From the NCBI RefSeq assembly GCF_044647545.1, contig NZ_CP172818.1: 64,000 nucleotides of DNA; one strand, given 5' to 3'. Made by a program: the position numbers and the translations under genes. The notes below the pieces were generated by a model. It was not told where the DNA came from, did no database searches, and saw only the letters and a list, made by a program, of their open reading frames with translations. Position 1 is the stretch's first letter, and the number at the start of each line of letters is the position of its first letter. This DNA is from Escherichia coli. Lineage in GTDB: Bacteria > Pseudomonadota > Gammaproteobacteria > Enterobacterales > Enterobacteriaceae. Positions 34,918 through 60,012 of this stretch are shown here, in pieces.

Positions 34918-35922
<1,005 letters not shown>

Positions 35923-36399: not shown

Positions 36400-37773
36400 G
36401 TGACCGCTTTTTCTACCCTGAATGTTTTGCCTCCCGCCCAACTCACGAACCTTAATGAGTTGGGTTATTTAACTATGACGCCGGTGCAGGCTGCCGCGCT
36501 TCCGGCGATCCTTGCCGGAAAAGATGTTCGCGTGCAGGCGAAAACCGGCAGCGGCAAAACGGCGGCTTTTGGCCTCGGCTTGTTACAGCAAATTGATGCG
36601 TCGCTATTTCAAACCCAGGCTTTAGTGCTGTGTCCTACGCGTGAACTGGCGGATCAGGTGGCAGGTGAATTGCGTCGGCTGGCGCGTTTTCTGCCAAATA
36701 CCAAAATTTTGACGTTGTGCGGTGGTCAACCGTTCGGTATGCAGCGTGATTCGTTGCAACATGCGCCGCATATTATCGTGGCAACGCCGGGCCGTTTGCT
36801 GGATCACTTGCAAAAAGGCACGGTATCACTGGATGCGCTGAATACTTTGGTGATGGATGAGGCCGACCGCATGCTGGATATGGGATTTAGCGATGCCATT
36901 GATGATGTCATCCGTTTTGCGCCTGCATCTCGACAGACGCTTCTGTTTTCGGCAACCTGGCCGGAAGCCATCGCCGCAATCAGCGGAAGAGTGCAGCGCG
37001 ATCCTTTAGCGATTGAAATTGACTCAACAGATGCTCTGCCACCTATTGAACAACAATTTTATGAGACATCCAGCAAAGGCAAAATTCCGTTGTTGCAACG
37101 GTTATTAAGTTTGCATCAGCCATCCTCTTGCGTGGTGTTTTGCAATACCAAAAAAGATTGCCAGGCTGTCTGCGACGCGCTGAATGAAGTAGAGCAAAGT
37201 GCATTGTCGTTACACGGCGATCTGGAGCAACGTGATCGCGATCAGACCCTGGTACGTTTTGCTAACGGTAGCGCCCGTGTACTGGTTGCGACTGATGTTG
37301 CTGCGCGTGGTCTGGATATTAAATCGCTTGAGCTGGTGGTGAACTTTGAGCTGGCGTGGGACCCTGAAGTTCATGTACATCGCATCGGCCGTACAGCGCG
37401 TGCAGGAAATAGCGGTCTGGCGATCAGTTTCTGTGCCCCGGAAGAAGCACAGCGGGCCAATATCATTTCTGACATGTTGCAGATAAAACTTAACTGGCAA
37501 ACGCCGCCAGTTAATAGTTCCATTGTGCCGCTGGAAGCAGAAATGGCAACGTTATGTATCGATGGCGGGAAAAAAGCCAAAATGCGCCCGGGTGATGTAT
37601 TAGGTGCGCTGACAGGAGACATCGGGCTTGATGGCGCAGATATTGGCAAAATCGCCGTGCATCCGGCGCATGTCTATGTCGCGGTGCGTCAGGCTGTTGC
37701 TCATAAAGCATGGAAACAGTTACAGGGCGGGAAGATTAAAGGAAAAACGTGCCGGGTGCGGTTATTAAAATAA
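36400..37773 (+). CDS. dbpA: ATP-dependent RNA helicase DbpA (DEAD-box)
   Basis: 457 aa ORF starting at GTG; DEAD-box motifs (AKTGSGKT, DEAD, SAT, HRIGRTARAG). Confidence 0.9.
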   Translation: MTAFSTLNVLPPAQLTNLNELGYLTMTPVQAAALPAILAGKDVRVQAKTGSGKTAAFGLGLLQQIDASLFQTQALVLCPTRELADQVAGELRRLARFLPNTKILTLCGGQPFGMQRDSLQHAPHIIVATPGRLLDHLQKGTVSLDALNTLVMDEADRMLDMGFSDAIDDVIRFAPASRQTLLFSATWPEAIAAISGRVQRDPLAIEIDSTDALPPIEQQFYETSSKGKIPLLQRLLSLHQPSSCVVFCNTKKDCQAVCDALNEVEQSALSLHGDLEQRDRDQTLVRFANGSARVLVATDVAARGLDIKSLELVVNFELAWDPEVHVHRIGRTARAGNSGLAISFCAPEEAQRANIISDMLQIKLNWQTPPVNSSIVPLEAEMATLCIDGGKKAKMRPGDVLGALTGDIGLDGADIGKIAVHPAHVYVAVRQAVAHKAWKQLQGGKIKGKTCRVRLLK

Positions 37774-37785
37774 TGAAATGTTGAA

Positions 37786-37896
37786 TTGCCGGGTGCAAGA
37801 GTAAACATCTTATTCGGGATTGCCGGATGCGACGCTGGCCGCGTCTTCTCCGGCCTCCATAAGAGTAGCCCGATAAGCTTGCGCATCGGGCGCTAT
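37786..37896. repeat. REP/BIME-like palindromic elements between dbpA and ttcA
   Basis: tgccggatgcgacgctggccgcgtcttctccggcctcc and gcccgataagcttgcgcatcgggcgctatccggg, REP-like GC-rich imperfect palindromes between convergent genes. Confidence 0.45.
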
Positions 37897-37901
37897 CCGG
37901 G

Positions 37902-38837
37902 TTATTTCACTTCAACCACATTCAGTCGTAACTCATCCAACTGATTTTCATCTTCTTCAGGCTGCCAACCCGCCGGTTGTAGAGGGATCTCTTCGCGATC
38001 AAACGCCAGATCACCCCCGTTAACCACTTCAGAACCGTGGGTAATGCCTTTGAAATCGAACAGGTTGGTATCGCACAGATGCGACGGCACCACATTCTGC
38101 ATCGCGCTGAACATCGTCTCGATACGCCCCGGATAACGTTTATCCCAGTCACGCAACATGTCAGCAATCACCTGACGTTGCAGGTTAGGCTGTGAACCGC
38201 ACAGGTTGCACGGAATAATCGGGAACGCTTTTGCATCGGCAAAGCGCTGAATATCTTTCTCGCGGCAGTAGGCCAGCGGACGAATAACGATATGTTTGCC
38301 ATCATCGCTCATCAGTTTCGGAGGCATACCTTTCATCTTGCCGCCGTAGAACATATTTAAGAACAACGTTTGCAGGATATCGTCACGATGGTGACCCAGC
38401 GCGATCTTCGTCGCTCCCAGTTCCGTTGCGGTACGGTAAAGAATTCCGCGACGAAGACGAGAACACAGTGAGCAAGTGGTTTTGCCCTCCGGAATCTTCT
38501 CTTTCACGATACCGTAAGTGTTCTCTTCCACAATCTTGTACTCAACGCCCAGTTTTTCAAGATACTCGGGCAGAACGTGTTCCGGGAAGCCCGGTTGTTT
38601 TTGATCGAGGTTGACAGCCACCAGCGAAAAATTGATTGGCGCGCTTTGCTGCAAATTGCGCAGAATCTCCAGCATGGTATAGCTGTCTTTACCCCCTGAG
38701 AGGCAAACCATGATGCGATCGCCTTCTTCAATCATATTGAAGTCAGCAATGGCTTCGCCCACATTACGACGCAGACGTTTTTGTAATTTGTTCAGGTTGT
38801 ATTGTTCTTTCTTACTAATTTCTTGATTTTCTTGCAT
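37902..38837 (-). CDS. ttcA: tRNA 2-thiocytidine synthase TtcA
   Basis: 311 aa ORF with PP-loop SGGKDS motif and paired CxxC motifs; its 5' end overlaps the prophage attachment repeat. Confidence 0.85.
38788..38830. repeat. prophage attachment-site direct repeat (attL copy)
   Basis: ttgttcaggttgtattgttctttcttactaatttcttgatttt, identical to 61887-61929. Confidence 0.75.
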
Positions 38838-38888
38838 TATTTCAGTTCTCTGGTACTAAATGGGGCAAATTGGGGGCAAACTTTGCAA

Positions 38889-40119
38889 CTACGATAACCG
38901 CGCATTCAACATGGCTATCTGTTCGTCGTTCATGTCATCAATCCACATACCGTAAATTTCATACACCATCTGCGCAGTTTCATGCCCCATTTGGCTGGCT
39001 ATAAATGCCGGGTTCGCTCCTGCCGTCAACAGCCAGCAGGCAAAAGTATGCCGCGTATGGTACGGATTACGGCGGCGAATACCAGCACGTTTTACTGCTG
39101 CATTCCACCTTGCCCCCAAACTGCTTACCGAGTAATAAGGTTTTTGTTTTCCGTTACACACCCTGGGCATGAAAACAAAATGCAGTTTTTGCTTTTCGGT
39201 TCTGCATACTGCCGATAATAAAAGGTGACGACTTTTGCGATGATGCCCGGTCAGTTTGTATTGCTCCTTCAGTGCTTCAAGAGCAGGCTGCAGTAGTGTT
39301 ACTGTTCGGATCCCGGCATTTGTTTTTGGGGGACCGAACATATCGAGCCCTCGTCAGGTTTCTTCTGACATTCACTATTCCCTTTTCGAGATCCACATCC
39401 TCCCACGCCAGAGCTGCCAGTTCCCCGTGACGAAGTCCTGAGTAAACGGCAAAGTTCCACAAGTTCTCGCTATCTCCTTTTTCACTTTCCATTAATGCAT
39501 TGAATTCTGTTTTAGATAACGGATCAGGCTTTATTCTGTTCGCTGTAATTTTTTTACTCCTTCAAATGGTTTGGTTGATATAAATCCGACTGATACGCAA
39601 AACGCAACAGCGAACAGAGCAAGGCAATATCGTATCAACTGTGCGCACGGTTCTTCCTTTTTTGTTGGATCTTGGATTATCCAGGTAAAGCGTTTCTCCA
39701 TGCAGCAGTTCATTCCGGTAGTTTAAGATATCGCTATAACGAATATGTGATATCGGGGTACTTTCACAAATTATTATTCTGAGTGTTTTTAATTGTGATT
39801 TCGTTTTCTTCATTGTGTTTGTTGTTAACTCTGTCTCTTTAATTTTTGTCCAGATATCACAAAGCTCTCCGAACGTTTTTATGACTCTCGTTGTCACCAT
39901 TTTTGCCCCAGTGCTGGACTGGGGAAAACGTCTTAAATACTCAAATTCACCGGAGTTTATTTCATGAACTATCAGCGCTCTTAAATTTCCGGCCTTTTTA
40001 ATATTACTGTTTGTAATCTCCCAGCCTTTTAATGTTTCCCGACATCGTTTTCCTCGAAACATGAACCAGATGCGAATGTATCTACCTCTAATCTCGACAC
40101 CTGTTGGTAATTTAGACAT
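38889..40119 (-). pseudogene. intR: prophage tyrosine integrase, reading frame broken by at least two frameshifts
   Basis: Three consecutive minus-strand ORF fragments (39562-40119, 39277-39492, 38889-39341) together resemble one tyrosine recombinase (MSKLPTGVEIRGRYIRIWF...; ...LRHGELAALAWEDVD...; ...RHTFACWLLTAGANPAFIASQMGH...EIYGMW). Confidence 0.75.
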
Positions 40120-40414: not shown

Positions 40415-40696
40415 TTAATTTGAATACAATGCAATTCTCGAGGACTGAAGTTTCTCGCAATTAAAATTTATCAGTTTTACTTTCTGCTCTCTGGAAACGC
40501 CTGCTTCTTTTTTACCTGAGAGCATTTTTTCGCATTCTGATTTCGTTAGTTTAGATTTTGAATATCTTGTCCAGTTAGTAGGAGTGCCACCTTCCTTTTC
40601 AATAGTGGCGGTAATTTTATACATGAACACCTCCATTATTATTTCCAGTGGTTCGTTTATTCCATCTTTCGAGTGCTTCTTTTTCACTTCCACCAT
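40415..40696 (-). CDS. ydaC: prophage protein of unknown function (alternative internal starts give a 69-73 aa product)
   Basis: 93 aa maximal ORF; internal Met candidates (MEVFMYKITATIEKEGG...); overlaps the 3' end of ralR. Confidence 0.6.
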   Translation of the reverse strand: MVEVKKKHSKDGINEPLEIIMEVFMYKITATIEKEGGTPTNWTRYSKSKLTKSECEKMLSGKKEAGVSREQKVKLINFNCEKLQSSRIALYSN

Positions 40697-41677: not shown

Positions 41678-44312
41678 TTGCATATTCCTTAGCCCAGCGG
41701 GGCAGTGATAATGTCTTAATAGCTGGCCATTCATCGGTATTCAGGCAGTCAGACAGGGTTCGCAGATTGCGGTGATATTCCTGTTGACCTGCCAGTTTTG
41801 CTTCTTCGCCCATCATGAAAATTTCAACCGGATAACGTCCGCATTCAATAGTTGTGCTGGCAACCAGAAAAACGAAAGTTGGCTGCACTCCAAACTGTGC
41901 TTCATAACCGTCACTGTAGAATGCATCCTGAACGTGATAGCGGTAGTCGTAATAAGCGGTTTTGAATCGTTGAATATCCGCCGTAGTTTTCACGTCCATG
42001 ATCCAGTGAAATTCAGGGATAATTTTGTCCGGACGGCACCGACACAAAATTCCTGTTTCAGGATCTTCCCAGTAAATTGATGATTCAGCGTGTCCGGCGC
42101 TTTCAACAAGCCATTGCCCCAGCGGCAAAGCCATAACGCTTTGATACATGAGTTCAATTTTCCGGCCTTCTTCCGCAGTGATAACCGTTTTTCCTGTGCT
42201 TGCGCATTCCATCAGAAACGCTTTCTCTTCTTCTTTTCCGGCGTTTGTACGGCGGTTAAATTCAGGTGCTACGATAAAGCGGTTACTGAATTCTTCCGGT
42301 TCAAGTACCCGGCAGTGGAAAGCAGTTCCTAAATCGAGCGTTTTTGTCTTTGTGGTGTCCACGGGGGCATTTTTACGCCACAAATATAGTGCCGGAGTAT
42401 CAGCAATGTCATCGAGCTGAGACTTACTGATACCGGGACCCGCGTGGTAATTCTCATTCGAAATTCCGTAATAAATACCTGGCTCTATGTCTTCTACGAT
42501 TAAGGGATCTGACGCCTCGCCAGTTTCACTATCGCTGGCATGATGCTGATTGCTGCCAGTGTTCTCCTTGTGCTGATGCGCAGTGCCTTCCATTTCCTCC
42601 AGATCATTTTTCTGAACTTCAGGCTGATTCTCTCCATCGAATATTTCCTGGTATGTTGCGTCACCCATCACCGCACCACAATCAGGGCAGTTGCCGCCAC
42701 CGCTCTGACCGCAGGCGGTGCAGATCTTTTCCGGTTCCTGTTGCACTACTGGTTCAGGTTGTTTCGTTTCTGGCTCGTTTTGTTGCGTATTTGGGCTGTT
42801 TTGTTCCGCTTTCTGGTCGTTCTGTTCCGTTTCTTGCTGGTTCTGGTTCACAGAATCGCGGGTCTGGATCCCCTTAATCCATTTCGGATCATTCGGGTCG
42901 CTAATCCCTTCAACAAATTCACCACGTGATACTGCAAGCAGTTCATCGTCATCGACAGGATTTTTTGATGGAATGTTTTTCCGGGCTTCATGGAGTTCTG
43001 CCCGCAGTTCCTGATATTTCGCATCAACAGAATTTACCTGTGACTGAGCATCCAGCGGCTGCGTGTCCTGATGATGTTCAGTTGCGTCCGGTTCCATTGT
43101 TTCAGCCTCTCCCTGTTCAACTGCCGTTGTTCCAGATGGTTGCGGTTTTTCTTCATCATCCTGTTTTCCTTCTTCTGTTACTCGCTGCGGCATCGGGGCA
43201 GAGGAGCGACCGCAGGCAATATCCACGATTTCCGGATCAGGGTTGGCATGATCGGTTTCAGTCAGTACTTTGTTCAGATATTCAGTGACGTGCGCGGGGA
43301 TGACCTCGATCCCAATTGGTGCTTCTTTTACGGACGCAACCACGATGGCGCGGGAATAATCCAGCCCGCCAGGCATGGTGATGAATTTGTCGCGGAAAAC
43401 AGAAAAGGGCGGTTTATTTTCAGCGATAATTTCCTCAATGCGTTTAGCGTGTGCCGGATGAAGGTTATAGATGTCCAGATCCATTGAACGGGCCAGTACG
43501 CCAGTGGCTACGTCGCGCGCCAGTGACGTCAGATCGTGTACGAAACCTTCGCCGCGATCGGTGAGGTTTCCGCCGCCAGCATTAGCACCGGAAGCCGTGC
43601 GAGTGATGTGTGAAACACGATTACCCTTCATCCACTCTTTTGTCAGCAGTCCTCGATCGGTGTAGTCAGCGTTCAGGTATGCTTCGAAAAAAGCAGTTAT
43701 CAGTCCCAGGTTTGAATTACCAGGATTAGGGAAAACTTTGTCAGTGTCACGAACCAGTTTGTGGAGTTCGCGAATTTCCAGCGGGTCGAGCAGGCTGGTT
43801 TTGTGGGAAACAGCCAGGGCAGTAACAGCCGGTAGTTCTTCAGCCCGAGCAATGTGTAATGCCTGGAGTCCGTCGCGTGAAACGTGCGTTACCGGTTTTT
43901 CGCTGCCGTGTTGAGCAAGCCAACGAATGGGCAGTTCCTGGCCAGAAATTGGGAGTAGCATATTCTCCTCAATCTCAGTCATGTCTTCGCCGTTGACGTT
44001 GGTATTGCCTTGATAGTGAGCGTTGTCTGGTGCTGCTCCCGGTTTTAGTTCCCATGTCATGGAGTCTTTGCTGAGTTGATAGCGTTCACTCCAGGTAAAA
44101 TCGATCTCACCTTCAGCGGGCAGGTCATTAACGACAGGAAAATTCGTGGCAACAGCTTTAAAATAGCTGCTCAGTTTTTTACCTGACTTAACGATCAGGT
44201 AGTCCAGAGTGGCACAGGTCGATTCAAAATCGTTGCTTGCCCACAGGACGACGTCAGGTTCACCGGATGATTTTTTCGCTTTCCGTAACAGGAAGAGTGG
44301 TTTTGTGCTCAT
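41670..44312 (-). CDS. recE: exonuclease VIII (RecE)
   Basis: 880 aa ORF beginning [24 protein letters not shown]; Q/E/P-rich central linker; overlaps recT start by 8 nt. Confidence 0.9.
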
Positions 44313-46085: not shown

Positions 46086-46237
46086 CTTACTGTGTGCTTC
46101 TCCAACCATCGGCGCGCACCAGTTTCGGTTTTAAATGTTTTGCTTTTGGTATACGTCATGGCAGTGAACGTTCCATCCTGGTTGGGGAACACGCCGCACA
46201 CCAGGGATTCGTTGTTGCCGAGGTCGATTTTTTGCAT
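46082..46237 (-). CDS. ydaF: small prophage protein YdaF
   Basis: 51-aa minus-strand ORF MQKIDLGNNESLVCGVFPNQDGTFTAMTYTKSKTFKTETGARRWLEKHTVS; below ORF-track cutoff. Confidence 0.5.
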   Translation of the reverse strand: MQKIDLGNNESLVCGVFPNQDGTFTAMTYTKSKTFKTETGARRWLEKHTVS

Positions 46238-46247
46238 TTTGCGAATC

Positions 46248-46382
46248 TCACATCTTGTTGCTACGTATAGCGACTTCTGCCTGCCAGAGATCCCAGTCGT
46301 TGCTGCGTAAAGCCTGCACAGCCTGGTTGTAAGTGATACCGCAACAATCCATCAAATACTGAACTACTTCGTAATGCACCAT
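46248..46382 (-). CDS. ydaG: small prophage protein YdaG
   Basis: 44-aa minus-strand ORF MVHYEVVQYLMDCCGITYNQAVQALRSNDWDLWQAEVAIRSNKM; below ORF-track cutoff. Confidence 0.5.
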   Translation of the reverse strand: MVHYEVVQYLMDCCGITYNQAVQALRSNDWDLWQAEVAIRSNKM

Positions 46383-46551
46383 CTTATCTCTCCCCTTAAC
46401 GCCGGGTGGCGGAACTAACTGCTGCACTGCAAAATTTGAATCCCGCCGTCATGTTCATACGCCTCGGGCTGGCTACTTAACCCCTTACCACTGCCTGGTA
46501 ACTCGAAGTATTGCCCGGCGTTCTGTGGGGCGGGGTGGGTGGTATGCTGGA

Positions 46552-46596
46552 ACTATAGGTAATGCCTAATTGATTGTCAATAGGCTATGCCTAATG
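46552..46596 (-). promoter_or_regulatory. leftward early promoter (PL-like) with overlapping operator half-sites, downstream of racR
   Basis: Minus strand reads cctaTTGACAat-17 bp-TATAGT; TGCCTAA/TTAGGC half-sites at 46563-46570 and 46581-46595 (taggc-tat-gccta inverted repeat). Confidence 0.4.
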
Positions 46597-46690
46597 TTTT
46601 GAGCGTAACCTAATAGGTGATGGCGACAGCAGAAAGTGATGGGGGGGTTAAATAACGGAATCCAGGAGTTTTCCGTCAGACCATATAAGT

Positions 46691-47167
46691 TTAAGTTCCA
46701 GTTTTTGTGATGTTCTGGCTTTTCCGTTCAGATTCAAGAGCTTTCAGATACTTACCCACTTTCATTTCCATCGCTGCTATGTAGGCGCGAACATCGTGGT
46801 CAACCCAATCTGGTTCTGTAGCATTTCCAGATAACAGGAAAGCTACAATCGCTCTTATTTCATCAGAGGCTGCTTGATAAAGGTTGTTTATATCTAAAAG
46901 TTCACTTTTTGTATCTGAATTGGTGGGGGTTGGTATGGGGTATTCGTTAAGCCCCCAATGCTCTGGACCAACAACATCAGAAAAGAAACGCCATAATTCT
47001 GGAAGTTTATCTTTACTTATAGAGCCTTTCTTAATCCAGTCATAAATTGATGGTGGTTGGACTTTAAAGTGGCGTGCGACCTCCGCCTTTGATTTGACGG
47101 ATCCCGATGCGATTTTTTTGTTAATGGCCTGCTCTATCGCTCGGCCTAAGTCTTTACCACTAAGCAT
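46691..47167 (-). CDS. racR: prophage repressor RacR (cI-like role)
   Basis: 158 aa ORF with N-terminal HTH-like region; divergent from ydaS; flanked on both sides by operator-like repeats. Confidence 0.8.
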   Translation of the reverse strand: MLSGKDLGRAIEQAINKKIASGSVKSKAEVARHFKVQPPSIYDWIKKGSISKDKLPELWRFFSDVVGPEHWGLNEYPIPTPTNSDTKSELLDINNLYQAASDEIRAIVAFLLSGNATEPDWVDHDVRAYIAAMEMKVGKYLKALESERKSQNITKTGT

Positions 47168-47194
47168 TGCTTAATATTCTCCTATGCGCATTAC

Positions 47195-47264
47195 ATTAGG
47201 CAATCCCTACCCTTACTGCATTAGGCACAGCCTATTGACAATTGCGTTAGGCGTCGCCTAATAT
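47195..47264 (+). promoter_or_regulatory. rightward early promoter (PR-like) with operator repeats between racR and ydaS
   Basis: attaggca at 47195-47202 and 47220-47227; cctaTTGACAat at 47231-47242; perfect palindrome ttaggcg-t-cgcctaa at 47247-47261 in the spacer; TAATAT -10 at 47259-47264. Confidence 0.45.
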
Positions 47265-47290
47265 TTCTGTGTGTTTTTGGAGTTCATTCG

Positions 47291-47587
47291 ATGAAAAAAG
47301 AGAACTATTCATTCAAGCAAGCTTGTGCTGTTGTCGGTGGGCAATCAGCAATGGCTAGGCTTTTAGGTGTATCACCTCCAAGCGTAAATCAATGGATCAA
47401 AGGGGTACGTCAATTGCCTGCCGAGAGATGTCCAGCAATTGAACGTGCAACAAGAGGTGAGGTTCTGTGCGAAGAACTTCGTCCTGATATTGACTGGTCA
47501 TATTTACGACGTTCGGCATGTTGTTCGCAGAATATGTCAGTGAAGCAACTAAATGACAGTAACAAATCCTCATTTGATCATACCTGA
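47291..47587 (+). CDS. ydaS: Cro/HTH-like small DNA-binding protein YdaS
   Basis: 98 aa ORF with HTH (FKQACAVVGGQSAMARLLGVSPPSVNQWIKG); first gene of rightward operon. Confidence 0.8.
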   Translation: MKKENYSFKQACAVVGGQSAMARLLGVSPPSVNQWIKGVRQLPAERCPAIERATRGEVLCEELRPDIDWSYLRRSACCSQNMSVKQLNDSNKSSFDHT

Positions 47588-47609
47588 AACATCAAGAGGC
47601 AAATGATTC

Positions 47610-48032
47610 ATGAAAATCAAGCATGAGCACATCGAATCAGTGTTGTTTGCCCTAGCAGCCGAAAAAGGGCAGGCATGGGTAGCCAATGCAATTACTGAAG
47701 AATATCTGCGCCAGGGGGGCGGCGAATTGCCCCTGGTTCCAGGCAAGGACTGGAACAATCAGCAGAATATCTATCACCGTTGGTTGAAAGGTGAAACGAA
47801 AACGCAAAGAGAAAAAATTCAGAAGCTGATCCCAGCAATTCTGGCAATCCTTCCGCGCGAGCTGCGTCACCGACTCTGCATCTTCGATACCCTGGAACGC
47901 CGTGCATTACTGGCGGCGCAGGAAGCGTTAAGTACGGCAATTGATGCGCATGATGATGCAGTCCAAGCCGTTTACCGGAAAGCGCATTTCAGCGGCGGCG
48001 GTTCTTCCGACGATTCTGTCATTGTTCATTAA
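47610..48032 (+). CDS. ydaT: prophage protein YdaT (cII-position protein)
   Basis: 140 aa ORF immediately downstream of ydaS. Confidence 0.8.
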   Translation: MKIKHEHIESVLFALAAEKGQAWVANAITEEYLRQGGGELPLVPGKDWNNQQNIYHRWLKGETKTQREKIQKLIPAILAILPRELRHRLCIFDTLERRALLAAQEALSTAIDAHDDAVQAVYRKAHFSGGGSSDDSVIVH

Positions 48033-48044
48033 GCAAAAGTTTCC

Positions 48045-48902
48045 ATGCTGTTTGTGCTTATTCTAAGCCACCGGGCAGCATCATACGGGGCAATTATGGC
48101 CGCATTACCATACATGCAACTGTACATAGCTGATTACCTGGCTGACACCATGCATTTGTCAGCAGAGGAGCATGGTGCGTATTTGTTGCTGATGTTCAAT
48201 TACTGGCAAACAGGAAAGCCAATACCTAAAAACAGGCTGGCAAAAATTGCCCGTCTGACTAACGAGCGATGGGCTGATGTTGAACCATCCTTGCAGGAGT
48301 TTTTTTGCGATAACGGCGAGGAATGGGTGCATCTTCGGATTGAGGAAGATCTGGCATCAGTCAGGGAAAAATTAACCAAAAAATCAGCCGCAGGAAAAGC
48401 ATCTGTTCAGGCCAGAAGAAGCAGAAAGGAAGCAGATGTTCAAACAAAACAAGAGAGAAATTTAACAGGTGTTCAAACAGATGTTGAAGTGGTGTTTGAA
48501 CATGATGTCAACACAAAGGCAACTAATAAAGATACAGATAAAGATCTAAAAACAGATCCCCCCCTAAATCCCCCCCGGGGGAATCGAGGTGTCAAAAAGT
48601 TTGACCCTCTGGATATTACTTTGCCGAACTGGATTTCTGTCTCGCTTTGGCGTGAGTGGGTTGAATTTCGCCAGGCATTGCGAAAACCGATTCGAACGGA
48701 GCAGGGCGCTAACGGGGCGATACGGGAGCTGGAAAAATTCCGCCAGCAGGGTTTTTCACCTGAGCAGGTGATTCGACACAGCATCGCCAATGAATACCAG
48801 GGCTTGTTCGCGCCGAAAGGTGTTCGACCTGAGACGTTACTCCGACAGGTTAACACCGTCTCGTTACCGGATAGTGCGATCCCGCCAGGCTTCAGGGGGT
48901 AA
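48045..48902 (+). CDS. ydaU: replication-initiation-like protein YdaU (lambda O position)
   Basis: 285 aa ORF preceding a DnaC-like gene, lambdoid O-P arrangement. Confidence 0.75.
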   Translation: MLFVLILSHRAASYGAIMAALPYMQLYIADYLADTMHLSAEEHGAYLLLMFNYWQTGKPIPKNRLAKIARLTNERWADVEPSLQEFFCDNGEEWVHLRIEEDLASVREKLTKKSAAGKASVQARRSRKEADVQTKQERNLTGVQTDVEVVFEHDVNTKATNKDTDKDLKTDPPLNPPRGNRGVKKFDPLDITLPNWISVSLWREWVEFRQALRKPIRTEQGANGAIRELEKFRQQGFSPEQVIRHSIANEYQGLFAPKGVRPETLLRQVNTVSLPDSAIPPGFRG

Positions 48903-48908
48903 CTGACC

Positions 48909-49655
48909 ATGAAAAATATTGCGACAGGCGATGTTCTTGAACGTATCCGCAGACTGGCCCCGTCACATGTAACCGCGCCATTCAAGACGGTAGCGGAGTG
49001 GCGCGAGTGGCAACTTTCCGAAGGCCAGAAACGTTGTGAGGAGATCAACCGTCAGAATCGTCAGTTGCGGGTGGAAAAAATTCTGAATCGCTCTGGCATC
49101 CAGCCATTGCACCGCAAATGCTCGTTTTCGAATTACCAGGTGCAGAACGAAGGGCAGCGATACGCGTTGAGTCAGGCGAAATCCATCGCTGATGAACTGA
49201 TGACCGGGTGTACAAATTTTGCGTTCAGCGGAAAACCTGGTACCGGGAAGAACCACTTAGCGGCAGCTATCGGGAATCGCCTGCTGAAAGACGGTCAGAC
49301 AGTGATTGTGGTTACCGTGGCTGATGTTATGAGTGCCCTGCACGCCAGCTATGACGATGGGCAGTCAGGCGAAAAATTTTTGCGGGAACTGTGCGAAGTG
49401 GATCTGCTGGTTCTTGATGAAATTGGCATTCAGCGCGAGACGAAAAACGAGCAGGTGGTACTGCACCAGATTGTTGATCGCCGGACAGCGTCGATGCGCA
49501 GCGTGGGGATGCTGACAAACCTGAACTATGAGGCCATGAAAACATTGCTCGGCGAGCGGATTATGGATCGCATGACCATGAACGGCGGGCGATGGGTGAA
49601 TTTTAACTGGGAGAGCTGGCGTCCGAATGTCGTCCAGCCAGGAATTGCGAAGTAA
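48909..49655 (+). CDS. ydaV: DnaC/IstB-like AAA+ replication protein (helicase loader)
   Basis: 248 aa ORF with Walker A ([15 protein letters not shown]) and Walker B (LLVLDEIG). Confidence 0.8.
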
Positions 49656-50199
49656 TTTTTACCGGGAGAAAAATTTAATGGAGACTGTTTTTGACGCACT
49701 GAAAGCAATGGGAAAAGCCACATCCATAGAACTTGCTGCGCGACTTGATATCAGTCGTGAAGAAGTGCTGAACGAACTATGGGAACTGAAAAAGGCTGGT
49801 TTTGTTGATAAAAGCGCGTACACCTGGCGTGTGGCTGATAACAATGTTCAGCAGGAACAGCCAGCGCAGGCAGAACTGCCGGAAGAAATCACCACAGCAA
49901 CAGTAGCGAAAATCTCAGAGTGCGATTTAACCGCGACGATTGAACAACGAGGACCACAAACGGCTGATGAGCTGGCTACATTGTTTGGTACCACATCACG
50001 CAAAGTGGCTTCAACGCTGGCAATGGCAATCAGCAAAGGTCGTCTGATTCGCGTAAATCAGGGCGGTAAATTTCGTTACTGCATACCGGGCGATAATTTA
50101 CCAGCAGAGCCGAAAGCAGCATCGGTATCTCCGCTCTGGTTATCTGCATCATCGTCTGCCTGTCATGGGCTGTTAATCATTACCGTGATAACGCCATGA
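49627..50199 (+). CDS. ydaW: prophage protein YdaW, probably a remnant; 3' end runs out of frame over the Rz N-terminal coding region
   Basis: 190 aa ORF; N-terminal winged-helix-like region; its last ~33 codons overlap sequence that encodes an Rz transmembrane segment in another frame. Confidence 0.5.
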
Positions 50200-50570
50200 C
50201 CTACAAAGAGCAGCGCGATAAAAAAGTCAGTGAGCTGAAGCAGGCGACTGCCACCATTACTGACATGCAGCAGCGCCAGCGTACTGCTGATGCACTTGAT
50301 GCTAAATACACGAAGGAGTTAGCTGATGCGAAAGCTGAAAATGATGCTCTGCGTGATGATGTTGCCGCTGGTCGTCGTCGGTTGCACATCAAAGCAGTCT
50401 GTCAGTCAGTGCGTGAAGCCACCACCGCCTCCGGCGTGGATAATGCAGCCTCCCCCCGACTGGCAGACACCGCTGAACGGGATTATTTCACCCTCCGGGA
50501 ACGACTGGTAATGATGCAGGCCCAACTTGAAGGTGCTCAGCAATACATAACCGAGCAGTGTTTAAAGTAA
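50097..50570 (+). pseudogene. rzpR: Rz-like i-spanin lacking a start codon
   Basis: Frame open from 50097; encodes ...[34 protein letters not shown]... (Rz-like TM helix plus coiled-coil domain) but the first ATG (50196) lies after the TM segment. Confidence 0.65.
50326..50511 (+). CDS. rzoR: Rz1-like o-spanin lipoprotein embedded in the +1 frame of rzpR
   Basis: 61 aa ORF with lipobox ([11 protein letters not shown]) and proline-rich tail ([18 protein letters not shown]), fully nested in rzpR. Confidence 0.7.
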
Positions 50571-50707
50571 AATCTTAACTACAATATGATTCATTTTGAT
50601 GATTGTTTCATAAGGAACAGTGAAGTAAGATCTAAGAGGAGTTAAATTTTATACAGTATAATCATAATATTGCAGCAAGGTGGTTATAATTGAAAGAATA
50701 TTTAGAT

Positions 50708-52165
50708 ATGAATACATCTCATGTAAGAGTTGTTACTCATATGTGTGGGTTCCTGGTTTGGCTCTATAGTCTTTCAATGTTGCCACCAATGGTTGTAGCA
50801 TTGTTTTATAAAGAAAAAAGCCTGTTTGTTTTCTTTATAACTTTCGTTATATTTTTTTGCATTGGTGGCGGAGCGTGGTATACAACTAAGAAATCTGGCA
50901 TTCAATTACGTACCCGTGATGGGTTTATTATAATTGTAATGTTTTGGATTTTGTTTTCTGTTATTAGTGCATTCCCTTTATGGATTGACTCAGAACTTAA
51001 TTTAACGTTCATTGATGCTCTGTTTGAAGGGGTTTCTGGAATAACAACAACAGGAGCAACTGTAATTGATGATGTTAGTTCATTACCTCGGGCATATTTG
51101 TACTATCGGTCACAGTTAAATTTTATAGGTGGTTTAGGAGTTATTGTTCTGGCGGTTGCTGTATTGCCATTATTGGGTATTGGTGGTGCAAAGCTTTATC
51201 AGTCAGAAATGCCGGGGCCATTTAAGGATGACAAACTCACTCCCCGCCTGGCCGATACGTCACGGACACTGTGGATAACTTATTCTTTATTAGGTATTGC
51301 TTGTATTGTCTGTTATAGACTTGCAGGAATGCCTTTGTTTGATGCTATTTGTCACGGGATTTCCACAGTTTCGCTTGGTGGTTTCTCAACTCATAGCGAG
51401 AGTATCGGATATTTTAATAACTATTTGGTTGAGCTGGTGGCTGGTTCTTTTTCCCTGCTATCGGCTTTCAACTTCACTCTTTGGTATATTGTTATTAGCA
51501 GGAAAACGATAAAACCTTTAATCAGAGATATTGAACTTCGTTTCTTTCTGTTAATAGCCTTAGGGGTGATCATTGTTACCTCTTTCCAGGTCTGGCATAT
51601 AGGTATGTATGACTTGCATGGAAGTTTTATTCATTCGTTTTTTCTTGCCAGCTCCATGCTCACTGATAATGGTTTAGCTACGCAGGATTATGCAAGTTGG
51701 CCCACGCACACGATAGTGTTTTTGCTGTTGTCAAGTTTCTTTGGGGGATGTATAGGTTCAACTTGTGGTGGAATTAAGTCACTTCGATTTCTTATACTTT
51801 TCAAACAAAGCAAACACGAGATAAATCAGCTTTCTCATCCCAGAGCGTTGTTGAGTGTAAATGTAGGAGGGAAGATAGTTACAGATCGTGTAATGAGGTC
51901 TGTATGGAGTTTCTTTTTTCTTTATACTCTCTTCACGGTGTTTTTTATACTGGTGTTAAATGGTATGGGATATGATTTTCTTACATCATTTGCAACAGTG
52001 GCTGCATGTATTAATAATATGGGATTAGGTTTTGGGGCTACTGCATCGTCATTCGGAGTGCTTAATGACATTGCAAAATGCTTAATGTGCATAGCTATGA
52101 TTCTTGGTCGCCTTGAAATTTATCCTGTTATTATATTGTTTTCAGGTTTTTTTTGGCGCTCCTAA
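50708..52165 (+). CDS. trkG: Trk-family potassium uptake membrane protein
   Basis: ORF 50690-52165; likely ATG at 50708 (MNTSHVRVVTHMCGF...); polytopic; AT-rich relative to its flanks by eye. Confidence 0.85.
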   Translation: MNTSHVRVVTHMCGFLVWLYSLSMLPPMVVALFYKEKSLFVFFITFVIFFCIGGGAWYTTKKSGIQLRTRDGFIIIVMFWILFSVISAFPLWIDSELNLTFIDALFEGVSGITTTGATVIDDVSSLPRAYLYYRSQLNFIGGLGVIVLAVAVLPLLGIGGAKLYQSEMPGPFKDDKLTPRLADTSRTLWITYSLLGIACIVCYRLAGMPLFDAICHGISTVSLGGFSTHSESIGYFNNYLVELVAGSFSLLSAFNFTLWYIVISRKTIKPLIRDIELRFFLLIALGVIIVTSFQVWHIGMYDLHGSFIHSFFLASSMLTDNGLATQDYASWPTHTIVFLLLSSFFGGCIGSTCGGIKSLRFLILFKQSKHEINQLSHPRALLSVNVGGKIVTDRVMRSVWSFFFLYTLFTVFFILVLNGMGYDFLTSFATVAACINNMGLGFGATASSFGVLNDIAKCLMCIAMILGRLEIYPVIILFSGFFWRS

Positions 52166-52302
52166 TATATGGCTGATTTATAATTGTGAGTTTAATATTA
52201 TGTTGACTCACTCATTGATCCAATACCTAACTTTACCAGCAACACCTCCGTCCCCAGTAGCACTGGCTGCTGGGGTGCGTTTTATTCATAAAGCAAGGCT
52301 GT

Positions 52303-52566
52303 ATGAGCGAGAAATTAAAGATAGTCTATCGCCCATTACAAGAATTGTCACCGTATGCGCACAACGCCAGGACGCACAGTACTGAGCAGGTGGCACAACT
52401 GGTAGAAAGTATTAAGCAATTCGGCTGGACTAATCCGGTGCTGATTGACGAAAAGGGCGAAATTATTGCGGGTCACGGTCGTGTTATGGCGGCTGAAATG
52501 CTCAAAATGGATTCTGTTCCGGTCATTGTTCTGTCTGGCCTGACGGATGAGCAGAAGCAGCGATAA
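52303..52566 (+). CDS. ynaK: ParB-like nuclease-domain protein fragment
   Basis: 87 aa ORF (MSEKLKIVYRPLQELSPYAHNARTHSTEQV...IAGHGR) resembling the N-terminal ParB/Srx domain; overlaps ydaY by 20 nt in another frame. Confidence 0.65.
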   Translation: MSEKLKIVYRPLQELSPYAHNARTHSTEQVAQLVESIKQFGWTNPVLIDEKGEIIAGHGRVMAAEMLKMDSVPVIVLSGLTDEQKQR

Positions 52567-52906
52567 CGATCAGTATCGCTCCCGTAATGCATTAATCCGT
52601 CGCCACATTGAGAAAATGGATGCCAGTTTGCACGTCGGAACGAAGGAGTTTGATATTTCAAAGGTTTCCGAGGTGGATTCTGTTGATGATTTACTCATTG
52701 ATAATGCCGCTCGTTATCTGCTGAAAGACTGGAAAGGGGTTGGTGAACTGGTTAATGGTGTTGAGGTTGCACTGGAATATACGGCAGAACGAGGGATCGC
52801 GCTGCTTAAGCAGAATCCAGAGTTGTACTGGCAGATCCTTGCAGAAGCAGCCAGCATCGCCCAGGGTAAAGAGCAGCAGAAGCAGGATACGATAAAAAAG
52901 CCATAG
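52547..52906 (+). CDS. ydaY: prophage protein YdaY (probable remnant)
   Basis: 119 aa ORF overlapping the end of ynaK in a different frame, suggesting a split ancestral gene. Confidence 0.55.
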   Translation: MSRSSDNDQYRSRNALIRRHIEKMDASLHVGTKEFDISKVSEVDSVDDLLIDNAARYLLKDWKGVGELVNGVEVALEYTAERGIALLKQNPELYWQILAEAASIAQGKEQQKQDTIKKP

Positions 52907-52980
52907 CTGCCCAGCGGTGGTTATCGGAGTTCGGGGGAGAAAGGGGGGAAAAGGCAAGATGGAAGCGAGAAAAACTCAGG

Positions 52981-53214
52981 TTGCCACCGATACCGGAACC
53001 AGAAATAGACCCGGTGCTTAAGGAGTTGTTGTACGCCTATTCGGTAATATCCCGTGCCCGACGTTATGCTGGAATGGCTGGGGTGCCTTTGCCTTTATCT
53101 CTGACAGAGATAAATGAATATTTAGCCACTCATCCGGTATTGATTGAGCGCGATGAATTTGAAGCAGTGATCTTTGCACTGGATGACCAGTATTTTCAGG
53201 AGCAGTGTGTGTAG
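52981..53214 (+). CDS. hypothetical 77-aa ORF (TTG start), possible tail-assembly chaperone remnant
   Basis: ORF directly upstream of the tape-measure fragment, the position occupied by G/GT chaperones in lambdoid tail modules; weak start context. Confidence 0.3.
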   Translation: MPPIPEPEIDPVLKELLYAYSVISRARRYAGMAGVPLPLSLTEINEYLATHPVLIERDEFEAVIFALDDQYFQEQCV

Positions 53215-53332
53215 TTGTTAATTACGTACACTCTGTTACAGAGATGTGATGGTGTCTTTAATTAAATCGATGATGCTCCTGGAGAAAAGCATTGCGTGGC
53301 CTCGTAATCGCTATATCTACTATTATGTCGCC

Positions 53333-53362
53333 TGAAACCCACTTCGCGGTGGGTTTTTTGTT
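53333..53362 (+). terminator. intrinsic terminator-like hairpin upstream of tmpR
   Basis: gaaacccac-ttcgc-ggtgggttt followed by tttttgttg. Confidence 0.45.
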
Positions 53363-53379
53363 GTCAGGAGTTTTAATAA

Positions 53380-54408
53380 ATGGCAGAGCAAACCTCGCGT
53401 CTCGCAATAATTATTGATAGCACTGGAGCGAAAAATAATGCTGACAATCTGACCTCCTCATTAGTCAAAATGACGCAGGCTGGGGAAACTGCTGCAAATA
53501 GCGCAGGGAAAGTGACTAAGGCAACAGAAGATGAGAAGAACGCGCTCGCAAAATTAAAAGCAGCTATTGATCCAGTTGGTGCCGCAATTGATACTGTCGG
53601 TCGACGCTATTCTGAATTAAAGAAATTTTTCGATAAAGGGCTTATTGATAAAGAAGAATATGAATTTCTTGTCCGTAAACTTAATGAAACCACAGAGGAA
53701 TTGAGCGGGGTTGCGCAAGCGCAGAGAGAAGCCGAGAAGGCCGGAAAACTTGCTGCCGCTCAGCAGGAAGCGCAGGCTCAGGCCTTTCAAAGAATGCTGG
53801 ACAAGATCGACCCTCTGGCTGCGGCGCTAAGAAATCTTGAACAACAGCATGATGAACTTAATGCTGCGTTTGCATCCGGGAAAATAAATGGTTCTCAGTT
53901 TGAGAATTATAGCCGAAAAATACAGGAAACACGGCGAGAGCTTACCGGAGAGGCTCAGGCAGAGCGAGAAGCAGCAAAAGCGCATGATGAACAGGTTGTT
54001 GCTTTGCAACGTCTGATTGCTCAACTTGATCCTGTCGGAACTGCTTTTAATCGTCTGGTAGAACAACAGAAACAGCTCAATGAAGCAAAAGCTAAGGGGA
54101 TGCTTTCTCCTGAAATGTATGAGGAGCTTTCTGGAAAACTTCGTGCTATGCGGAGTGAGCTTGAGGTTACTCAATCACAATTAAGCAAAACCGGAATGTC
54201 GGCAAAACAAACGGCTTTTGCTATGCGCATGTTGCCTGCACAAATGACGGATATTGTTGTTGGGTTGTCCACTGGTCAGTCGCCATTTATGGTGTTAATG
54301 CAGCAGGGCGGCCATTCAGCTATGCAGGAGACAAGAATCGCCAGCTTACCCGTTACAGCGATACCCGCTGGCATGAAGATTCAGTGCGTAACCGCTGGTT
54401 CAGCATGA
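53380..54408 (+). CDS. tmpR: tail tape-measure protein fragment (N-terminal coiled-coil part)
   Basis: 342 aa ORF, highly alpha-helical A/E/K/Q-rich sequence; C-terminal ~35 codons overlap lom-frame sequence, indicating a deletion junction. Confidence 0.7.
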
Positions 54409-54524
54409 TGGCGGGGCCATCTGTACGCGTGAATGAATGGTTCAGTGCTTATGCGATGGCGGGTGTGGCTTACAGCCGTGTTTCGACGTTCTCCGGGGAT
54501 TATCTCCGCGTAACTGACAACAAG

Positions 54525-55720
<1,196 letters not shown>

Positions 55721-55935
55721 CAAGGGGAAAACGCACGATGTGCTGACCGGAAGTGATGACGATCGCCACAGCAACACGTCTCTGGCGTGGGGAGCTGGCG
55801 TGCAGTTTAACCCGACCGAATCCGTGGCCATTGACATTGCTTATGAAGGCTCCGGCAGTGGCGACTGGCGCACTGACGGTTTCATCGTGGGTGTCGGTTA
55901 TAAATTCTGATTAGCCAGGTAACACAGTGTTATGA

Positions 55936-55963
55936 CAGCCCGCCGGTTCAGGCGGGCTTTTTT
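55936..55963 (+). terminator. intrinsic terminator downstream of lomR
   Basis: agcccgcc-ggttca-ggcgggct followed by tttttt. Confidence 0.45.
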
Positions 55964-55968
55964 GTGGA

Positions 55969-58900
55969 GTGGATATGGCAGCAGTAAAAATCTCAGGTGT
56001 GCTGAAAGATGGTGCGGGAAAACCAATACAGAACTGCACTATTCAACTGAGGGCAAAGCGTAACAGCACCACGGTACTGGTGAACACGGTGGCCTCTGAA
56101 AATCCGGATGAAGCCGGGCGTTACAGCATGGATGTTGAGTATGGCCAGTACAGCGTCACCCTGCTGGTTGAAGGTTTTCCGCCTTCACATGCCGGAACCA
56201 TTACCGTCTATGAAGGTTCCAGACCAGGTACGCTGAATGATTTTCTCGGTGCCATGACGGAAGATGATGTCATGCCGGAGGCATTGCGTCGTTTTGAGGC
56301 AATGGTGGAAGAAGCGGCACGCAACGCGTCCGCGGTGGCACAGAACACGGCAGCCGCGAAGAAGTCAGCCAGTGATGCCAGCACATCAGCCCGTGAGGCG
56401 GCAACCCATGCGGCTGATGCTGCGGACTCAGCACGCGCAGCCAGCACGTCAGCCGGACAGGCCGCGTCGTCGGCTCAGTCAGCGTCTTCCAGCGCAGGAA
56501 CGGCATCAACAAAGGCCACTGAAGCATCAAAAAGTGCTGCCGCTGCAGAGTCCTCAAAAAGCGCGGCGGCCACCAGTGCCGGTGCGGCGAAAACGTCAGA
56601 AACGAATGCTTCAGCGTCACTACAATCAGCAGCCACATCTGCATCCACCGCGACCACGAAGGCATCAGAAGCTGCGACCTCGGCCCGGGATGCGGCGGCC
56701 TCAAAAGAAGCGGCAAAATCATCAGAAACGAACGCATCATCAAGCGCCAGTAGTGCAGCTTCCTCGGCAACGGCGGCAGGAAATTCCGCGAAGGCGGCAA
56801 AAACGTCCGAGACGAACGCCAGGTCTTCTGAAACGGCAGCGGGACAGAGCGCCTCGGCTGCGGCAGGCTCAAAAACAGCGGCTGCGTCGTCTGCCAGTGC
56901 AGCGTCAACAAGTGCCGGGCAGGCCTCAGCCAGTGCCACCGCCGCCGGAAAATCGGCAGAAAGCGCCGCATCGTCTGCTTCAACAGCCACAACGAAGGCT
57001 GGCGAAGCCACTGAACAGGCCAGCGCAGCAGCGAGGTCTGCTTCCGCAGCGAAGACATCCGAAACGAACGCGAAAGCGTCGGAAACAAGCGCAGAATCCT
57101 CAAAAACGGCTGCCGCATCGTCAGCCAGTTCGGCGGCGTCATCGGCATCATCGGCGTCTGCTTCAAAAGATGAGGCGACCAGACAAGCGTCAGCAGCGAA
57201 GAGCAGCGCCACGACGGCATCCACGAAGGCGACAGAGGCTGCTGGCAGTGCGACGGCGGCAGCTCAGAGCAAAAGTACGGCGGAATCCGCGGCAACGCGC
57301 GCCGAGACAGCAGCTAAACGGGCAGAGGATATTGCATCCGCCGTGGCGCTTGAGGATGCAAGTACGACGAAAAAGGGGATAGTACAGCTCAGCAGTGCGA
57401 CCAACAGTACGTCTGAAACGCTGGCGGCAACGCCAAAGGCAGTAAAATCAGCCTATGACAATGCAGAGAAACGTCTGCAGAAAGACCAGAACGGCGCTGA
57501 TATACCCGATAAGGGATGCTTCCTGAACAACATTAACGCGGTCAGTAAAACAGACTTTGCTGATAAGCGTGGTATGCGTTATGTGCGGGTTAACGCTCCT
57601 GCAGGTGCAACATCTGGAAAATATTACCCTGTTGTTGTTATGCGTTCTGCTGGCTCAGTAAGCGAACTGGCATCAAGAGTCATTATCACCACGGCAACGC
57701 GAACCGCAGGCGATCCGATGAATAACTGCGAGTTTAACGGATTTGTTATGCCTGGTGGCTGGACTGACAGGGGGCGTTATGCTTATGGCATGTTCTGGCA
57801 ATATCAAAACAATGAACGAGCCATTCACTCAATAATGATGAGTAATAAGGGCGATGATTTGCGCTCTGTGTTCTATGTTGATGGCGCTGCTTTCCCTGTT
57901 TTTGCGTTTATTGAAGATGGCCTGTCAATATCCGCACCTGGTGCTGATCTCGTTGTTAATGATACGACCTATAAGTTTGGGGCAACAAATCCGGCGACTG
58001 AATGTATCGCGGCGGACGTTATCCTTGATTTTAAGAGTGGGCGTGGTTTTTATGAGTCTCATTCGTTAATCGTTAACGATAACTTGTCGTGCAAAAAACT
58101 TTTTGCCACAGACGAAATTGTAGCGCGTGGTGGTAATCAGATTCGAATGATAGGTGGGGAGTATGGTGCATTATGGCGTAATGATGGCGCTAAAACTTAC
58201 CTGCTGCTTACCAATCAAGGTGATGTTTATGGTGGCTGGAATACATTAAGACCGTTTGCTATTGATAACGCAACCGGCGAACTGGTTATTGGAACCAAAC
58301 TGTCCGCAAGTCTGAACGGTAATGCATTAACAGCAACAAAGCTGCAAACGCCAAGACGGGTTTCTGGTGTTGAGTTTGATGGTTCCAAAGATATTACTTT
58401 AACCGCCGCGCATGTGGCTGCTTTTGCCAGAAGGGCAACGGATACATATGCCGATGCGGATGGTGGCGTTCCATGGAATGCCGAATCTGGCGCTTACAAT
58501 GTCACCCGCTCTGGCGACAGCTATATTCTGGTTAACTTCTATACCGGAGTCGGAAGTTGCCGGACCCTGCAGATGAAGGCGCATTACAGAAATGGTGGTC
58601 TGTTCTACCGTTCTTCAAGAGACGGTTATGGTTTTGAGGAAGACTGGGCAGAAGTTTATACCTCGAAAAATCTTCCACCAGAAAGCTACCCAGTCGGCGC
58701 ACCAATCCCGTGGCCATCAGATACGCCACCTGCAGGTTATGCAATCATGCAGGGGCAGACGTTTGATAAGGCAGCATATCCGAAACTGGCTATTGCCTAT
58801 CCTTCTGGTGTTATTCCAGATATGCGCGGCTGGACAATCAAGGGCAAACCCGCCAGTGGTCGGGCCGTATTGTCTCAGGAACAGGATGGCATTAAATCGC

Positions 58901-59340
58901 ACACCCACAGTGCCAGCGCATCCAGTACGGATTTGGGTACGAAAACCACATCGTCGTTTGATTACGGTACTAAATCAACGAATAACACAGGTGCACATAC
59001 CCACAATGTATCTGGTACTGCAAATAGTGCTGGCGCACATACTCATACCGTTCCATTAAGGAGACCAAACAGTGGCGGTATGAATTTCGACTGGCTGGAT
59101 GGTTCATCAAGTGGCACGGTGGTGGGGAATGGAACTGTGCCTTCTTCTGGCGCACATACCCACTCAGTATCAGGTACCGCTACAAGTGCTGGGGCACATG
59201 CACACACTGTTGGTATTGGCGCTCATACGCACTCTGTTAAGATTGGTTCACATGGACACACCATCACCGTTAACGCTGCTGGTAACGCGGAAAACACCGT
59301 TAAAAACATCGCATTTAATTATATTGTGAGGCTTGCATAA
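55969..59340 (+). CDS. stfR: side tail fibre protein
   Basis: 1123 aa ORF (GTG at 55969; ATG at 55975); long Ala/Ser/Thr-rich low-complexity central region and C-terminal His-rich repeats (GAHTHxVSGTA). Confidence 0.85.
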
Positions 59341-59915
59341 TGGCATTCAGAATGAGTGAACAATCACGTACCGTAAAAATTTATAACCTGCTGGCCGGAA
59401 CTAATGAGTTTATTGGTGAAGGTGACGCATATATTCCACCTCATACAGGGCTGCCAGCTAATTCTACAGATATCGCCCCACCGGAAATTCCTGCTGGCTT
59501 TGTGGCAGTTTTTAACAGTGAAAATGAATCGTGGAATATTGTTGAAGACCATCGTGGTAAAACGGTCTATGACGTGGCGTCGGGGGACGCATTGTTTATT
59601 TCTGAACTCGGACCGCTACCAGAGAATGTCACCTGGTTGTCGCCAGCAGGGGAGTATCAGAAGTGGGACGGCGTATCCTGGGTGAATGATGAGGAAGCAG
59701 AAAAACTGTTTCGGATACGGGAAGCGGAAGAAAGAAAAAGCAACCTGATGCAGGTAGCCAGTGAGCATATTGCGCCGCTTCAGGATGCTGCAGATCTGGA
59801 AATTGCAACGGAGGAAGAAACCCCGTTGCTGGAAGCATGGAAAAAGTATCGGGTATTGCTGAACCGTGTTGATACGTCAACTGCACAGGATATTGAATGG
59901 CCAGCACTGCCGTAG
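59340..59915 (+). CDS. tfaR: tail fibre assembly protein
   Basis: 191 aa ORF whose ATG overlaps the stfR stop (TAATG); Tfa family. Confidence 0.85.
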
Positions 59916-60012
59916 GGTAAAACATATAAATTCTATAATTAGATGTATCTTTCCATTTACGGCAAGGAAGGGGGCTTGGAAGACGTAAAGCATCTCACAC
60001 CGAGATTATTTT

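Follow-up and report, generated by a model that had tools for sequence, protein, structure and literature searches.

Why would a prophage keep an Rz reading frame that has nowhere to begin, wrapped around an Rz1 gene that is intact? The locus lies within a stretch of 64,000 nucleotides of Escherichia coli DNA (the window), and a first-pass annotation described it as a spanin pair in which the Rz-like gene had lost its start codon. We consider it very likely that an internal deletion in the defective lambdoid prophage Rac left this segment as its scar. Illegitimate recombination at a 2-nt TA microhomology removed all DNA from about ydaW codon 151 through Rz codon 7, which amounts to 8.2 kb in one intact relative (WP3-W18-ESBL-08) and varies in length among relatives, and fused the 5′ 60% of ydaW to Rz codon 8. 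The leftovers of this event are a ydaW′ fragment whose open reading frame (ORF) runs out of frame into Rz, an Rz frame that has its helix and no initiation codon or ribosome-binding site, and a complete rzoR with a strong ribosome-binding site. The start codon is indeed absent, as first described, but the description missed the cause: rather than being lost by point mutation, the start went with the deleted segment.

The 5′-truncated i-spanin frame (′rzpR, 50097 to 50570, + strand) is closed upstream by TAA at 50094 to 50096 and, according to the sequence and a six-frame ORF list, stays open until TAA at 50568 to 50570, giving 474 nt free of stops and frameshifts. It matches PHROG 13 (“Rz-like spanin”) with an E value of 4.6e-74 over profile positions 7 to 154 of 154, and homology to Rz extends from 50126 (residue 8 of the lambda protein) to the stop. 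A codon scan found no in-frame ATG, GTG, or TTG between 50097 and 50195; the only candidates there are the near-cognate codons ATC (50121, 50127, 50142, 50148, and 50151) and CTG (50136 and 50160). The earliest canonical start is ATG 50196, which lies 3′ of the transmembrane helix. The coding sequence of the N-terminal transmembrane domain (50118 to 50174, + strand) aligns with lambda Rz residues 8 to 24 and holds the 19-residue hydrophobicity peak of the frame (mean Kyte-Doolittle value, 2.5), all of it upstream of ATG 50196. The 124-aa product of that ATG contains no hydrophobic segment (maximum, 0.36 on the same scale). The ORF list, codon scan, and hydropathy profile thus bear out the first-pass description of a frame open from 50097 that encodes the helix, with no start before it and the first ATG after it. 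An i-spanin gene combines a start codon, an N-terminal transmembrane domain, and periplasmic coiled coils; here, the coding sequences of the transmembrane domain and the coiled coils are present and homologous from residue 8, and the start and codons 1 to 7 are gone.

ATG 50196 overlaps the stop codon of the ydaW′ ORF (TGA, 50197 to 50199) in an ATGA arrangement. We considered whether this overlap represents designed translational coupling and rejected it as incidental, because the product from ATG 50196 would be without a membrane anchor; the ATG is an internal methionine codon of the allele that donated this sequence. Coupled reinitiation, even if it occurs, would yield an anchorless cytoplasmic product. 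Exact-product look-ups returned no record for the 124-aa ORF or for the 173- and 190-aa ydaW′ fusion ORFs.

Upstream of the Rz homology lies the front of a different gene. The ydaW′ fragment (49678 to 50127, + strand), recognized by tblastn, PHROG, and DNA homology, comprises the N-terminal ~150 codons of a 253-aa DUF1627 (PHROG 630) replication-region gene. When the full-length DUF1627 protein of UTAK-23 was compared with the window by tblastn, residues 1 to 151 of 253 aligned at 49678 to 50130 with 94.7% identity, and the PHROG 630 match covers profile positions 1 to 154 of 253. The ORF runs from ATG 49678 to the TGA ending at 50199 (the listed ORF spans 49627 to 50199), and its tail (50128 to 50199, + strand) reads across the Rz transmembrane-helix region, so that its final 23 to 24 codons are Rz sequence in the wrong frame. 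The earlier statement that the upstream sequence is occupied out of frame by the end of ydaW was correct as to the out-of-frame overlap, but ydaW is itself incomplete, and what had been taken for its end is Rz.

The two homologies meet within 2 nt. DNA homology to ydaW stops at 50127 and that to Rz starts at 50126, and both the overlap of BLAST segments and a three-way alignment place the deletion junction at the TA (50126 to 50127, + strand) common to both parental sequences. In a megablast search of 49600 to 50700 against 5,426 complete E. coli genomes, those with an intact DUF1627 gene matched query positions 1 to 528, and those with an intact Rz matched from query position 527. The junction is spanned in about 335 complete genomes, and among the matches listed, 60 of 60 are of the K-12 type; an exact 35-mer across the junction is absent from GTDB species-representative genomes. 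Directly downstream of Rz, trkG (50708 to 52165, + strand) is placed as in intact Rac-type prophages, which indicates that the right side of the scar is original. Scanned against Rfam, the scar and its vicinity matched no RNA family. Elsewhere in the window, the same scan gave gathering-level hits to the RalA antitoxin sRNA (40440 to 40618, +), IS009 (59683 to 59881, +), FnrS (36018 to 36135, +), and McaS (32545 to 32640, −).

The missing interval can be read from the essentially complete Rac-type prophage of WP3-W18-ESBL-08, in which 8,200 bp separate the two breakpoints. Its gene order is recE-racC-ydaE-kilR-ydaF-racR and ydaS-ydaT-ydaU-ydaV-DUF1627 (762 nt)-DUF977 on the left, then iteA-iteS-DUF1367-DUF1364-DUF1133, tRNA-Thr, and tRNA-Gly, and then essD (holin)-rrrD (endolysin)-Rz (465 nt)-trkG-ParB/Srx on the right; terminase, portal, head, and tail genes follow, and then ydaY and the tape measure gene. 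The 8,200 bp therefore hold the rest of ydaW, DUF977, the iteA/iteS defense genes, DUF1367/1364/1133, the tRNAs, essD, rrrD, and Rz codons 1 to 7. The equivalent interval measures about 11 kb in UTAK-23 and about 6.7 kb in FDAARGOS_497, with different cargo (FDAARGOS_497 combines a P-loop ATPase with a holin of the lambda type and an endolysin of the GH24 family). XJ6-3 has the order essD-rrrD-Rz-trkG, and FDAARGOS_497 likewise has holin-endolysin-Rz-trkG. The length of what was lost is uncertain, but the class of its content is certain: a late regulator region, a holin, and an endolysin.

The intact Rac-type prophages of WP3-W18-ESBL-08, FDAARGOS_497, and XJ6-3 share with the window the backbone recE...racR-ydaSTUV-DUF1627 ... 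Rz-trkG-ynaK, and their DNA is 97.5 to 98.7% identical to it on either side of the scar. Unlike the window, they keep a full-length DUF1627 gene, DUF1367/1364/1133, both holin and endolysin, and a 154-aa Rz that has retained its ATG, together with the terminase-to-tail genes. Their defense-type cargo after DUF1627/DUF977 is variable: WP3-W18-ESBL-08 has iteA/iteS (an antiphage ATPase and an S8 peptidase; segment positions 8755 to 12148), and FDAARGOS_497 has an Sll1717-family P-loop ATPase (segment positions 12653 to 14722). The interval between the replication genes and DUF1367/1364/1133 looks like a hotspot for morons and defense genes.

The window aligns with the WP3-W18-ESBL-08 segment in three collinear blocks (46103 to 50127 with 3777 to 7802, 50126 to 52556 with 16001 to 18431, and 52555 to 54314 with 29992 to 31749). 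The second gap between blocks is a further deletion scar at 52555 to 52556, where ynaK′ (52303 to 52566) meets ydaY (52547 to 52906) at a 2-nt AA microhomology. Compared with WP3-W18-ESBL-08, it lacks 11,562 bp: the rest of the ParB/Srx gene ynaK, terminase, portal, and the head genes up to the tail tube gene, the gap ending just short of ydaY. A second scar of like kind indicates that the Rac prophage decayed by such deletions.

No partner genes for lysis were found within the window. With three holins (EssD, class II, and lambda S-like), two endolysin families (RrrD and GH24/lambda R-like), and two Q antiterminators as tblastn queries, no homologue was detected in the 64 kb (best E = 0.17), and Rz and DUF1627, used as positive controls, matched at 1e-58 to 1e-93. 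Holin, endolysin, and Q are also not listed in the curated MG1655 annotation of Rac, which is collinear with the prophage in the window. The 64 kb thus lack a late-controlled lysis cassette in which holin and endolysin would accompany the spanins, in agreement with the first impression of a cassette reduced to a spanin remnant. The first-pass annotation had named a functional upstream start for Rz or a flanking holin-endolysin pair as what would speak against its reading; we found no canonical start and, in the 64 kb, no such pair. Spanins complete lysis once holin and endolysin have acted, and they need both subunits to do so (PMC6139136, PMC5295617). The locus would therefore have no lysis function, and membrane-anchored Rz is probably not made.

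Alignment with lambda Rz/Rz1 and with intact homologous prophages, which had been proposed as a check, defines how much of the pair is left. Lambda Rz consists of an N-terminal transmembrane domain (residues 1 to 24) and coiled coils (27 to 87 and 121 to 150) with functional C99 and C152, and lambda Rz1 has signal residues 1 to 19, a lipoylated C20, C29, and a proline-rich region (PMC5295617). The lambda arrangement (NC_001416) is preserved in the window: Rz1 lies inside Rz in the +1 frame, Rz has kept C99 and C152, and Rz1 has kept C20, C29, and the penta-proline. Identity between the Rz frame and lambda Rz is 83% over an alignment whose first seven columns are nonhomologous ydaW-derived residues in place of MSRVTAI; the match proper starts at I8. 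All Rz/Rz1 domain features other than Rz residues 1 to 7 are present. In contrast to lambda, the pair has neither the Rz start with codons 1 to 7 nor an S, R, Q, or pR′ upstream of it, and the C termini of both proteins are of the Rac type, Rz1 ending in SGNDW. The essD-rrrD-rzpD/rzoD genes of DLP12, another cryptic prophage of K-12, likewise include a lambdoid spanin pair, and RzoD and RzoR are near-identical. Presumably, DLP12 of K-12 differs in keeping its holin, endolysin, and full-length RzpD.

In contrast to the rest of the scar, part of the Rz frame does not resemble K-12. All 27 differences from K-12 within 49600 to 50700 lie between 50151 and 50303 (+ strand), and this patch relative to K-12 rzpR agrees base for base with Rz from a P22-like prophage: positions 50128 to 50330 of the window are 100% identical to the Rz of WCHEC050613, the matched portion being its N-terminal half, and at least 17 more genomes are found among the matches listed. 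The patch creates ATG 50196 and TGA 50197, where K-12 reads ATC GCC; because of this, the K-12 ydaW ORF is 39 nt longer, and the rzpR remnant annotated in MG1655 has 99 codons. We initially took two K-12 amino acid differences in the transmembrane region (50151 and 50170) for pseudogene decay and dropped this reading because the intact Rz of WP3-W18-ESBL-08 has the same base as K-12 at 50151. The tract begins no more than 25 bp from the start of Rz homology, which suggests that, once the deletion had occurred, the scar received a copy of a phage Rz allele. The simplest reading would be gene conversion of the remnant, in that order. The Rac sequence around the scar shows 0 mismatches to K-12, and the 27-SNP patch derives from Rz of a P22-like phage; an open and undegraded Rz frame would therefore reflect a recent deletion and later gene conversion rather than selection. 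Such exchange raises the possibility that the remnant has a continuing use, either as an active recombination partner from which infecting lambdoid or P22-like phages could pick up rzoR and most of Rz or through RzoR alone as a RacR-controlled outer membrane lipoprotein with a role in the host. We regard this continuing use as unlikely.

The nested gene is complete. As the first-pass annotation had it, rzoR (50326 to 50511, + strand) lies in the +1 frame with an intact lipobox; its 61-aa product has the lipobox VVGC with Cys20 behind a signal peptide, as well as Cys29 and a penta-proline stretch, and it matches the o-spanin family PHROG 3198 over essentially its full length (E = 2.3e-29). It therefore has what defines an o-spanin, that is, a small outer membrane lipoprotein with a lipobox cysteine encoded in the +1 frame inside an i-spanin gene. 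The Shine-Dalgarno (SD) sequence AAGGAG at 50313 to 50318 is identical to that upstream of lambda Rz1, and rzoR has all that translation requires. RzoR is identical to K-12 RzoR (b4528) and to Rz1 of the intact XJ6-3 cassette, and it is 93% identical to lambda Rz1.

Transcription through rzoR would have a single plausible source, a consensus-like promoter between racR and ydaS (47235 to 47264, + strand; TTGACA-18-TAATAT, 10 of 12 matches) that reads through ydaSTUVW′. A scan found no convincing plus-strand terminator between this promoter and 50570; the promoter and terminator counts are near, or within about 1.6 standard deviations of, those of shuffled sequence and serve as weak context only. 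RacR represses ydaS-ydaT from the racR-ydaS intergenic region (PMC5700373). RzoR can probably still be made at a low level by read-through of the RacR-repressed early-right operon ydaS-ydaW′, and it would probably be sorted to the outer membrane without a partner. Published evidence of expression is weak: one report describes a MALDI mass, induced by eugenol treatment, that is consistent with RzoR (PMC6115441), and ribosome-profiling reads of rzoR are indistinguishable from those of rzoD. The nested rzpR/rzoR pair is mentioned in PMC9431181.

An intact ORF, SD sequence, and lipobox, a possible response to eugenol, and the survival of rzoR in all K-12-type Rac copies would all suit a domesticated gene, retained through an acquired host function such as one in envelope stress or vesiculation. 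However, rzoR is identical in K-12, the window, and the intact cassettes, which leaves no divergence from which selection could be inferred, and with 0 mismatches per kb between K-12 and the prophage around rzoR, the intactness of the gene needs no selection. The eugenol evidence is a mass match only. We know of no phenotype for rzoR and consider domestication improbable.

It is more doubtful still that the Rz remnant is a working i-spanin gene, whose RzpR would start at ATC 50121 or arise by a ribosome shift from the ydaW′ frame and pair with RzoR. Automated annotation takes this view: in K-12 derivatives, PGAP calls a nonpseudo 149-aa “lysis protein” (WP_024262039.1) whose first codon is an ATC equivalent to 50121 and whose frame corresponds to 50121 to 50570 in the window. 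This call alone supports an upstream start. In favor of a working gene, the helix, the two coiled coils, and the cysteines C99 and C152 are all conserved in an open frame, and 474 nt without a stop or frameshift could on their own suggest continued use. However, the frame has no ATG, GTG, or TTG before the helix, and pairing with the anti-SD sequence is negligible at ATC 50121 (−2.1 kcal/mol, compared to −8.3 kcal/mol for rzoR, −5.4 kcal/mol for the intact Rz start of WP3-W18-ESBL-08, and +0.5 kcal/mol for ATG 50196). ATC 50121 also lies inside the translated ydaW′ ORF, and the curated MG1655 record holds rzpR to be a pseudogene. Furthermore, a spanin that lacks holin and endolysin would find nothing to act on (PMC6139136, PMC5295617), and the open frame is accounted for by recent deletion and gene conversion from a functional allele. 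An error of sequencing or assembly, or a point mutation confined to this strain, in an otherwise normal cassette is conceivable only a priori as the reason for the missing start and is already refuted by the identical junction in about 335 independent complete assemblies, by an upstream sequence that before 50126 is unambiguously ydaW and not endolysin, and by the absence of holin and endolysin from the whole window.

The deletion scar is already known; the E. coli reference genome carries it in its annotation, and cryptic prophages typically decay in this way. At the junction, MG1655 lists ydaW (b1361), rzpR (b1362, pseudogene), and rzoR (b4528, CDS), and the breakpoint in the window is the same ydaW/Rz breakpoint as in K-12-type deleted Rac, matching the ydaW/rzpR boundary of MG1655. 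Base for base, the window equals the K-12 derivative ER1709 over 49600 to 50150, junction included. Like K-12 Rac, it has the order ydaV-ydaW′-′rzpR/rzoR-trkG and 100% identical DNA on both sides of the scar, and it shares the other scars of the K-12-type backbone (the ynaK′-ydaY fusion, IS5 in lomR, and the location beside ttcA). Unlike in the window, no 27-SNP patch is found in any K-12 genome, and identity falls to 90.7% over 50040 to 50330. The value of the locus is mainly one of correct annotation, given that rzpR is a pseudogene in MG1655 and an ATC-started 149-aa “lysis protein” according to PGAP. In addition, ydaW is a normal CDS in NC_000913.3 despite its being a fusion fragment. The locus also shows the disarmament of a lambdoid prophage at base resolution: two microhomology-mediated deletions took the genes for lysis, late regulation, and morphogenesis, and host-useful cargo such as trkG and recET was kept. 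In a small but concrete way, the imported Rz patch illustrates how a defective prophage exchanges sequence with other phages.

The surroundings of the prophage are not those of K-12. We first took the window for MG1655 and rejected this because its flanks diverge and its Rz patch differs. The window is collinear with MG1655 positions 1411899 to 1434958 and has 0 mismatches per kb outside four patches, but the chromosomal background differs, the flanks at 3.6 to 40 kb diverging by 1 to 7% from MG1655. Diverged flanks around a prophage interior with 0 mismatches per kb to K-12 Rac suggest either that another lineage recently acquired the K-12-type deleted Rac or that the strain is a hybrid. No complete E. 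coli genome in the collection has this combination of flank and Rac (best, 98.4%). Across positions 1 to 64000, the window is a mosaic with switch points near 39 to 40 kb and 62 kb. Over positions 25000 to 39000, identity is 100% with wild isolates, among them FDAARGOS_497, which has a nearly intact Rac of its own; over positions 40000 to 62000, mismatches to K-12 Rac are confined to the four patches (0 per kb elsewhere). Compared with MG1655, the window is without some DNA around ycjY/pgrR (about 2.4 kb, between mppA and the mpaA/ymjC region) and without the IS5F copy between ynaI and ynaJ, the window sites for these two differences being 21228 to 21261 and 24126 to 24128. Besides the Rz patch, three more patches are 10 to 20% diverged from K-12, at ~42500 to 43000 (recE), 54000 to 56500 (lomR/IS5/stfR 5′ end), and 58500 to 60000 (stfR 3′ end/tfaR). 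The recE patch differs also from FDAARGOS_497 and WP3-W18-ESBL-08, and all three are presumably further recombination imports like that in Rz.
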